This document shows positions 7,342 to 8,905 of a stretch of DNA of 15,856 nucleotides, piece after piece. The stretch comes from Giardia intestinalis (taxonomy: Eukaryota), in NCBI GenBank assembly GCA_000002435.2, contig AACB03000028.1; one strand, written 5' to 3'. The translations under genes were made by a program, and so were the position numbers. The stretch's first letter is position 1, and every line of letters begins with the position of its first letter. Below the pieces are notes generated by a model, which had not been told where the DNA came from, did not search any database, and saw nothing but the letters and a program-made list of their open reading frames with translations.

Positions 7342-8905
7342 AAGAAGCCCAACAAGGGTGGTAGTGGGTGTGTGACATGCTCTGTGGGTGATTGCAAGAG
7401 CTGTGTGGTGGACAATATATGTGGGGAGTGTGTTGATGGATTCTACTTTAAAGCTGGCGATGCACCCAGCTGTGTTAGCGCAGAGGCGTGTACTAATGAG
7501 GAGGGCTTCTTCATCGACGCTACCGAGAAGAAGTGCACCGCGTGTGCAGATGATAATTGCGCTGTGTGCGTGGCCAAGGAGCAACAGAAGTGCAGCCTGT
7601 GTAAAACGTCTGGGACCAAGAAGTACCTGAAGAAGGATGGCGAGTCCACAACCGGCACGTGCGTTGACACAGCTGGTTGTCCGGCAACCCACTACGTTGA
7701 TGAAGAAGCAAAGGAGTGCAATACATGTGTGTCGGCTGGAACAACTGACTGCACCACTTGTGAGAAAGGCGCCAACGGAGTGGTTTGTAAGACGTGTACG
7801 ACTGATACGAAGACCATCTTTGGTCTCAACAGAAAGTCGTGCGTTGCTAGTTGCCCTGCTAACTCTACCCCCAAGGCCACCGGACAGGATAGCCAAGTGT
7901 GCGAGTGCAACGAAGGACTCCAACCTAATACTGAATCGACTGAATGCCAACCAATCAGTAACTGTAACACAGAGCACTGTTTGGAGTGCACCAGTGAAGG
8001 TGCCGATAAGGAGGTCTGTACAAAGTGTCTGTCTGAGTACTACCTCACCCCAACCAGTCAATGCGTATCTGACTGCACGACCCTCAAGGGCTACTACGGA
8101 AATGACACTGACAGAAAGTGCAAGAAGTGCAACGATGCGTGCGTAGAGTGCAAGGGTGAGGCGCTGATAAGTGTACGGCTTGTCCTGCTGGGAGGATGCT
8201 TCAGTATACAGATGCTGATACTCCTGCCAATGGGGGCACGTGCATGAACCAGTGCAGCGTGAGTTCTACAAACGATGGATGCGCAGAGTGTGGGGCTCAG
8301 ATAGGAGGAACTGCATACTGCTCAAAGTGCAAGAACACTCAACAGGCACCACTGGATGGCAACTGTGCGGCCAATACGCGAACACGATTTTGCACTACGG
8401 TGAGTAATGGAGCATGCACTCAATGTGAAAATAACTACTTCCTCAAAGATGGCGGTTGCTATCAGACAGATAGACAGCCTGGCAAGCAAGTGTGTACTAC
8501 AGTGCAGGGAGGAAAATGTACAAAATGTGCCAGTGGTCTAACGGCTGATAATGGCGATTGTTCCAATAAAAGGTGCCATCTTAGCTGCGAGACATGCACG
8601 GCTGCTAACGACGCTAACGCCTGTGCTACATGCAGCACTGGATATTACAAACCGCAGAGTGCTGGGACAAAGTGTAATCCGTGCTCTGAGGGGCTCGCTG
8701 GGTGCAGGCAGTGCACGGTGTCATCCACCGGTGCGTTCATGTGCTTCGTGATGGGCGACGGCACTGGCGACAACACCGGCGGAAGCGTCAACAAGAGCGG
8801 CCTCAGTACTGGTGCCATAGCAGGGATCTCCGTGGCTGTCATCGCTGTCGTGGGGGGCCTCGTGGGCTTCCTCTGCTGGTGGTTCGTGTGCAGGGGAAGG
8901 CGTGA
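7342..8905 (+). repeat. Copy 1 of the 1.56-kb block E, the C-terminal extension plus transmembrane helix. Copy 2 is at 12381..13946.
   Basis: Identity starts at AAGAAGCCCAACAAGGGTGGTAGTGGGTG. The copies differ only by two single-G deletions in this copy. Confidence 0.8.

Follow-up and report, generated by a model that had tools for sequence, protein, structure and literature searches.

A sharply bounded 3' block shared without substitutions by the two long units of a pseudo-VSP array in Giardia intestinalis

The VSG pseudogene arrays of Trypanosoma brucei hold promoter-less, often defective antigen copies that take part in segmental exchange and mosaic formation, and antigen switching in Giardia is regarded as epigenetic or post-transcriptional. 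The locus analyzed here is a 15,856-nt stretch of Giardia intestinalis DNA (contig AACB03000028.1 of the GenBank assembly GCA_000002435.2; hereafter "the window") that carries an array of units belonging to the family of variant-specific surface proteins (VSPs), the two longest of which, termed U4 and U6, share a substitution-free 3' segment of about 1.58 kb, termed block E. The closest described systems are the linear arrays reported by Adam et al. (2010; PMC2996952), in which the units are arranged head-to-tail with spacers of ~60 bp on average and up to 241 bp, the downstream members lack the initiator element (Inr) and often the ATG, and "long regions of 100% identity" occur. In the sequence preceding the conserved 3' end, the same authors detected recombination, and they proposed that the arrays are silent cassettes or discarded genes (PMC2996952). 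The window is a linear array of pseudo-VSPs of this type, with which it shares adjacent head-to-tail units, short spacers, the loss of the Inr and of the start, and a conserved 3' end.

The array comprises at least seven VSP units placed head-to-tail on the plus strand, and all of its long open frames are VSP-like. To judge from its nearest matches among proteins, the array probably belongs to assemblage A. The canonical 3' end AAGGCGTGA (…KA-stop) was found eight times, always on the plus strand (68, 1990, 3895, 5782, 8905, 10829, 13946 and 15829), and these eight ends delimit the units U0 (tail only) to U7. The periods of U1-U7 are 1922, 1905, 1887, 3123, 1924, 3117 and 1883 nt, i.e. 3117-3123 nt for the long units vs 1883-1924 nt for the short ones. 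The long units and the two copies of block E are made up as follows (all on the plus strand; landmarks by alignment, motif search and stop-to-stop period).

5783..8905, plus strand: U4, a long pseudo-VSP, 3123 nt from stop to stop
5834-6508, 6451-8244 and 8160-8942, plus strand: reading frames of U4 as assembled, with the coding sequence split
5834..7340, plus strand: head of U4, a VSP-body module with GGCY at 7054-7065 (alignment, motif search)
7341..8922, plus strand: block E, copy 1, 1582 nt, starting at the KKPNKGGSGC codons, with TGA at 8903-8905 (alignment)
8451..8462, plus strand: GGCY of copy 1 (motif search)
8913..8919, plus strand: polyadenylation signal AGTGAAT of copy 1, within the identical tract (motif search)
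10830..13946, plus strand: U6, a long pseudo-VSP, 3117 nt from stop to stop
10938..12379, plus strand: head of U6, a VSP-body module with NGCY at 12105-12116 (YMNGCY; motif search)
12380..13963, plus strand: block E, copy 2, 1584 nt, 521 codons plus stop (alignment, Pfam)
13491-13502, 13839-13943, 13944-13946 and 13954-13960, plus strand: GGCY, transmembrane helix with CRGKA, TGA and polyadenylation signal of copy 2, respectively (motif search)
8160-8161 (GG, U4) vs 13199-13201 (GGG, U6), plus strand: first G run, which frameshifts U4 inside block E
8893-8896 (GGGG, U4) vs 13933-13937 (GGGGG, U6), plus strand: second G run, which turns CRGKA-stop into CRGRRDLG...

Global alignment of U4 with U6 revealed that 7341-8922 (1582 nt) corresponds to 12380-13963 (1584 nt) with 0 substitutions, the sole differences between the copies being the lengths of the two G runs, by a single G each. 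Per 100 alignment columns, 50-84% match up to ~7330/12370 and 99-100% beyond; the last mismatch before the block falls at 7340/12379, the 104 nt that precede it (7237-7340) contain 23 mismatches (77.9% identity to U6), and identity between the heads is 72.8% across 1351 ungapped columns. The 3' edge (8922/13963) lies past the stop codon and the polyadenylation signal and is followed by sequence with 57-85% matches per 100-column window, with indels. The original prediction, which placed the block at 7342..8905 and 12381..13946, thus described a real feature and its 5' edge to within 1 nt; the 3' end it gave coincides with the canonical TGA, but the identity extends 17 nt further, through AGTGAAT. 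In the pairwise alignment set beforehand as the test of an abrupt onset against a gradual decay, the identity switches on sharply and shows no decay. The other parts of the description also held: the block is the 3' (C-terminal) part of the two longest units and has its own GGCY, the motif LKDGGCYQTD is present at 8442-8471 and 13482-13511, the quoted stretch CPANSTPKATGQDSQVCECNEG at 7852-7917 and 12891-12956 and the quoted pre-transmembrane segment GDGTGDNTGGSVNKSGLSTG at 8754-8813 and 13794-13853, the flanks are about 73-78% identical (claimed: ~80% similarity upstream), and domain annotation assigns the units to the VSP family (Pfam PF03302).

The longest run of matches encompasses 1565 columns, whereas permuting the 368 differing sites 20,000 times never gave a run above 122, which excludes chance. 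Synonymous sites and 17 nt of the 3' untranslated region are included in the identity, which persists despite the frameshift in U4; hence selection on the protein cannot explain it. The block is real, sharply bounded and probably recombinational, a phenomenon already known from the arrays of Adam et al. (2010). Because its edges are abrupt, synonymous and non-coding sites are covered and the breakpoints differ from pair to pair of units (see below), segmental conversion or crossover is the preferred explanation, and the identity of U4 and U6 over block E is likely to result from a recent homologous recombination (gene conversion or unequal crossover) among members of the array. The universally conserved 3' end would be the anchor of such an event, and its resolution at the KKPN codons would give the sharp 5' edge; the same process could have homogenized the tails of the short units and attached block E to different heads in other arrays. 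Some points weigh against this interpretation: the direction of transfer (donor and acceptor) cannot be inferred from the sequences, the offset between the copies of block E (5039/5040) is near that between U5 and U7 (5000-5002), which could indicate a larger tandem duplication with replacement of a patch, and the assembly contains error-like stretches, such that assembly or polishing may account for part of the exact identity and of the differences in the G runs.

A block of this kind is not peculiar to U4 and U6: k-mer chaining revealed comparably long near-identical 3' tracts in the short units.

2408-3938 and 9342-10872, plus strand: tract near-identical in U2 and U5
2437-3895 and 14373-15829, plus strand: tract near-identical in U2 and U7
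9371-10829 and 14373-15829, plus strand: near-identical body and tail of U5 and U7, offset 5000-5002
3398-4303 and 5285-6190, plus strand: tail of U2 with head of U3, near-identical to tail of U3 with head of U4
5285-5825 and 10332-10872, plus strand: near-identical tract
8923..9370 vs 13964-14372, plus strand: divergent patch of ~450 bp between two near-identical tracts, 57-85% per 100-column window

Counted upstream from the stop codon, the 3'-anchored tracts measure 1488 nt (U2/U5), 1554 nt (U2/U7), 1459 nt (U5/U7) and 1567 nt (U4/U6), and the last 111 nt are common to all of U2-U7. The units fall into two tail classes, the short ones with a 118-aa tail after NKPNLAGSGC and the long ones, U4 and U6, with block E after KKPNKGGSGC; tails are homogenized within each class while the heads remain diverse.

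The breakpoints specific to individual pairs were revealed by comparison with proteins from outside the window. The best database matches to block E are three proteins of isolate WB (ATCC 50803) from the 2007 annotation, namely XP_001705785.1 (P0118, 887 aa; 99.6% aa identity over E), XP_001703874.1 (P0119, 236 aa; 98.7%), which starts at the same Met as the downstream open reading frame (ORF) of U4, and XP_001707661.1 (P0001, 887 aa; 95.4%). In a four-way alignment of U4, U6, P0001 and P0118, in which mosaicism was judged at the protein level only, P0001 equals P0118 in columns 81-320, U4 equals P0118 from ~401 onwards, and U4 equals U6 only from ~521. The different switch point for each pair indicates mosaicism, as expected from repeated segmental exchange.

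A specific variant within the same recombinational framework would be a single tandem duplication of ~5.04 kb (7341-12379 to 12380 onward) by unequal crossover at the junction of head and block E, which would have copied the block together with the following short unit, the ~450-bp patch having been overwritten later. The two near-identical tracts with nearly equal offsets (5039/5040 and 5000-5002) fit such a history, as does the single blastn high-scoring segment pair (HSP) between 6838-10857 and 11892-15856 (93.4%). However, identity across the intervening patch (8923-9370 vs 13964-14372) reaches only 57-85% per 100-column window, U7 matches U2 across the whole unit whereas U5 matches U2 only from 2408, such that extra events are needed anyway, and the WB units with block E show different breakpoints. 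We consider the single duplication possible, but less than probable. The U7 version of the patch matches the head of U2, and the U5 version is nearer to the start of the U6 head (8789-9217 vs 10712-11124, 88%); these affinities imply at least one more exchange event.

It could also be suspected that block E does not really exist in two copies, or that the copies are not really identical, and that the apparent identity arose by collapse of repeats to a consensus in a long-read assembly or by polishing. The assembly does show signs of error: relative to the U2 head (2102-2399), the U7 head (14067-14336) has 26 deletions of one or two nt, against just 7 substitutions across 1991-2440, the coding sequence of U1 is scattered among the three frames, and both differences between the copies of block E are lengths of G runs, which is typical of poorly polished repeats. 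On the other hand, the Sanger-based WB proteome of 2007 independently contains three E-bearing proteins (95-99.6% aa) with different heads, the two copies are flanked by distinctly different sequence (73%), which demonstrates that two E-bearing units exist, and the boundary is sharp to the single base and keeps the register of the coding frame. An artefact is thus a very unlikely source of the identity. The deletion cluster in the U7 head itself has the look of errors in unpolished long reads, not of evolutionary change; many of the deletions lie outside homopolymers, and they destroy the reading frame of U7. The tail of U0 (within 40-68) has the same four-G run as U4, giving CRGRRDLG instead of CRGKA, and this frameshift may be genuine and have been copied, or else be a systematic error. 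The first 101 nt of the window (U0 tail, 1-101) are 99% identical to the tail of U4 (8838-8938).

With respect to its origin as a protein module, block E is collinear with the head of its own unit (head 38-389 vs E 16-398, 26% identity, E-value = 7e-15), and in this alignment the GGCY region falls on the GGCY region. It also aligns to residues ~170-680 of ordinary complete VSPs (about 31%). These alignments identify block E as a divergent second VSP-body module that has a GGCY, a stalk, a transmembrane helix, CRGKA and a polyadenylation signal of its own, and the long units consist of two VSP bodies in tandem. Pfam assigns block E alone to PF03302 with 238.3 bits and the whole of U6 with 279.7 bits (gathering cut-off: 31.4), and no family other than PF03302 was found in the Pfam scans. 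In a permissive scan Podoplanin appeared over the stalk and transmembrane region of block E, but below the threshold, and it was rejected. The sequence search of the PDB with block E yielded no solved relative, and TRF found no tandem repeat inside the block at the DNA level. The motif with which block E starts, of the KKPN/NKPN type, is present in all units, and the distance from it to the end is 118 aa in the short units vs 519 aa in the long ones. The claim that the block adds ~520 residues before the transmembrane helix needs to be corrected accordingly: the 521 codons include the transmembrane helix and CRGKA and substitute for the 118-aa short tail, hence the net extension is ~400 aa, consistent with the 1.2-kb difference between the periods.

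Each unit is a VSP without promoter or initiator, ATG, signal peptide and the first ~100-130 codons. The sequence AGTGAAT, the polyadenylation consensus of Giardia, is found 8 nt 3' of the stop codon of every unit and is followed by a short spacer full of stop codons and degenerate GTGATAG-like repeats (e.g. 3896-3946, 5783-5833, 8906-8975 and 13947-14020). The next open frame re-enters at "…ICTKA..G.CT.C", without ATG, 52-108 nt after the stop in the clean cases and later where the sequence is frameshifted, and the first Met is encountered only 130-262 codons into the stop-to-stop frames. The point of re-entry lies just past the place where complete VSPs have their N-terminal GGCY. Proteins of the WB arrays translate the equivalent spacer as "MLYSDSDSDS...GGCYKTESQPGSEICT", which indicates that the truncation point is slightly different between arrays. 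The initiator YAATGTT has 0 matches on both strands of the whole window. Compared with complete VSPs as defined by Rodriguez-Walker et al. (2022) and Xu et al. (2020), U6 has the PF03302 match, the Cys-rich ectodomain with many CXXC and the C-terminal transmembrane helix with CRGKA, but neither the starting ATG with a signal peptide nor the initiator (C/T)AATGTT with a long non-coding region upstream. The absence of an initiator element, of a signal peptide and of an ATG close to where the frame begins identifies the units as pseudo-VSPs, and to judge from these sequence features they are presumably silent.

The longest frame of U6 (10938-13943, 1002 codons) opens 108 nt past the preceding stop and has its first ATG at codon 263 (11724); by inspection, the sequence that follows this ATG (MKGSGPTGECLP...) is not hydrophobic and shows no signal peptide. 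From this ATG, U6 encodes 740 aa (11724-13946) with 91 Cys and 29 CXXC. The U6 protein ends with a transmembrane helix followed by CRGKA, as is the rule in the VSP family, while U4, which as assembled lacks one G, ends with CRGRRDLG and is broken by the two G-run differences (ORFs 6508-8247 and 8196-8945). The proposal that U6, and U4 as well, are functional genes for long VSPs, kept identical over block E by purifying selection on an extended ectodomain, would agree with the uninterrupted 1002-codon frame, canonical tail and polyadenylation signal of U6 and with a complete long homolog with a signal peptide in isolate P15 (P0002, 1075 aa), but it is extremely improbable, as U6 runs for 262 codons without ATG and has neither signal peptide nor Inr, U4 is frameshifted twice, the identity includes synonymous and untranslated positions, and neither the three WB proteins nor any other retrieved assemblage-A protein carrying block E possesses a signal peptide.

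The description of U6 as an unusually long VSP of ~1000 codons is therefore accurate for the open frame but not for an expressible gene, given the first ATG at codon 263 and the missing signal peptide and initiator; nor is a length of 3 kb unusual, as it falls within the known range of vsp genes (222-6777 nt; PMC2996952). U6 was also said to have two GGCY motifs, but it possesses one NGCY and one GGCY, while the two GGCY of U4 lie in different frames owing to the frameshift. Neither would two GGCY be exceptional: among 136 complete WB VSPs, 64 have two (the commonest state) and 49 have one (bioRxiv 10.1101/2022.03.07.483299), and the number per vsp was reported as 1.4 on average with a maximum of 5 (Adam et al. 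2010; PMC2996952). The complete relatives that we retrieved mostly have two GGCY, and the long ones have three; the array units lost the N-terminal GGCY at the truncation point.

A few further features of the window deserve mention. U1 (69-1990) is spread over three frames (ORFs 262-897, 467-1000, 900-1277, 1076-1453, 1228-1626 and 1607-1990), and its GC content is 0.56-0.61, compared to 0.47-0.55 in the other units; U1 is thought of here as one of two things, a decayed, older member of a different VSP lineage or a further stretch of low-quality sequence. Additional ORFs within or near block E (12267-13100, minus strand; 7291-8061, minus strand; 12676-13185, plus strand; 10338-11438, minus strand) match no Pfam family and were dismissed as by-products of composition. 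The only repeat reported by TRF is a two-copy 20-nt repeat in the spacer between U4 and U5 (8929-8971), and the Rfam scan of the whole window at gathering thresholds gave 0 matches.

Matching of length, Cys and CXXC counts and mass with the statistics in Additional file 1 of Adam et al. (2010), rather than an identifier table, was used to map the WB proteins to vsp genes, and in this way P0001 and P0118 were identified as vsp59 (GL50803_40571, chromosome 4 array) and vsp112 (GL50803_34357, chromosome 5 array). Both (887 aa) have the same two-module structure as U4 and U6, a head followed by block E, both lack a signal peptide and an Inr, and both are located in linear arrays. Their heads differ from those in the window (about 40-80% aa) and become identical at other positions. 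By the same kind of statistics, the ATG-ORFs of U2 and U5 (2612-3895 and 9546-10829; 427 aa, 51 Cys, 18 CXXC, 44.0 kDa) correspond to vsp111 (GL50803_137607), which adjoins vsp112, and the 740-aa ORF of U6 is close to the 5'-incomplete vsp109 (743 aa; equal Cys and CXXC counts), a member of the linear array on WB chromosome 5 (Adam et al. 2010). The units of the window do not follow the order of vsp109-112, and the exact ORFs of the window (seven ATG-ORFs looked up) are absent from the protein collection, which does contain P0001 as the representative of its cluster; the window would thus be a different copy, isolate or assembly. It may represent the WB chromosome 5 array in a more complete assembly, or the counterpart of that array in a close assemblage-A isolate, and the gene set of the array has very probably been catalogued already in G. 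intestinalis WB.

The complete homolog from isolate P15 (assemblage E), P0002 on contig ACVC01000201.1, is a 1075-aa VSP that has three GGCY and a signal peptide. Its alignment with U6 is collinear along 100% of the length (49% in the head and 45% in the E-like tail), with GGCY at homologous places, and it ends with a transmembrane helix and CRGRA where U6 has CRGKA. Unlike U6, it possesses the signal peptide, the N-terminal domain and the third, N-terminal GGCY. It is also encoded by a stand-alone gene outside any array, with an upstream spacer of ~500 nt and a NEK kinase gene downstream. The existence of this complete homolog implies that the two-module architecture is old.

Among the retrieved assemblage-A proteins, block E is present only in promoter-less array units, on at least two WB chromosomes and in the window, attached to at least four different heads. 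We speculate that it could be a silent modular tail cassette, kept uniform by concerted evolution, which segmental conversion could attach to an expressible VSP to generate long chimeric antigens; if true, this would place a recombinational layer of antigen diversification over the epigenetic switching of Giardia, but we consider the idea unlikely. Base-sharp breakpoints, such as 7340/7341, could serve as markers for donation from arrays to expressed VSPs. For the purposes of annotation, U4 and U6 should be treated as pseudo-VSPs and not as giant VSPs.

By analogy, the array in the window resembles the VSG archives of T. brucei in being composed of promoter-less, often defective copies with segmental exchange; in Giardia, array units are not known to donate sequence to expressed VSPs. 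The pseudo-VSP arrays of G. muris (Xu et al. 2020; PMC7641422) are adjacent to telomeres, a preference that the arrays of G. intestinalis do not share, and the VSPs of G. muris end with GCRGK, as compared to CRGKA in the window; on account of this tail an origin of the window from G. muris was rejected. Block E is a clean, well-delimited example of a homogenization already published for WB in 2010 and for G. muris in 2020. The comparison with the arrays of Adam et al. (2010; PMC2996952) yields a modest addition, namely that the long array units are composites of a neighbor-like head and a divergent second VSP module. That study does not describe such a head-plus-E composite and places the long units in clade II among clade I neighbors, whereas the long units in the window have heads similar to those of their array neighbors (50-59% aa) and only block E is odd. 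A composite structure likewise characterizes the 887-aa "clade II" array genes of WB, which have a head like that of their clade I neighbors and a divergent tail module, and it would explain their odd phylogenetic placement.

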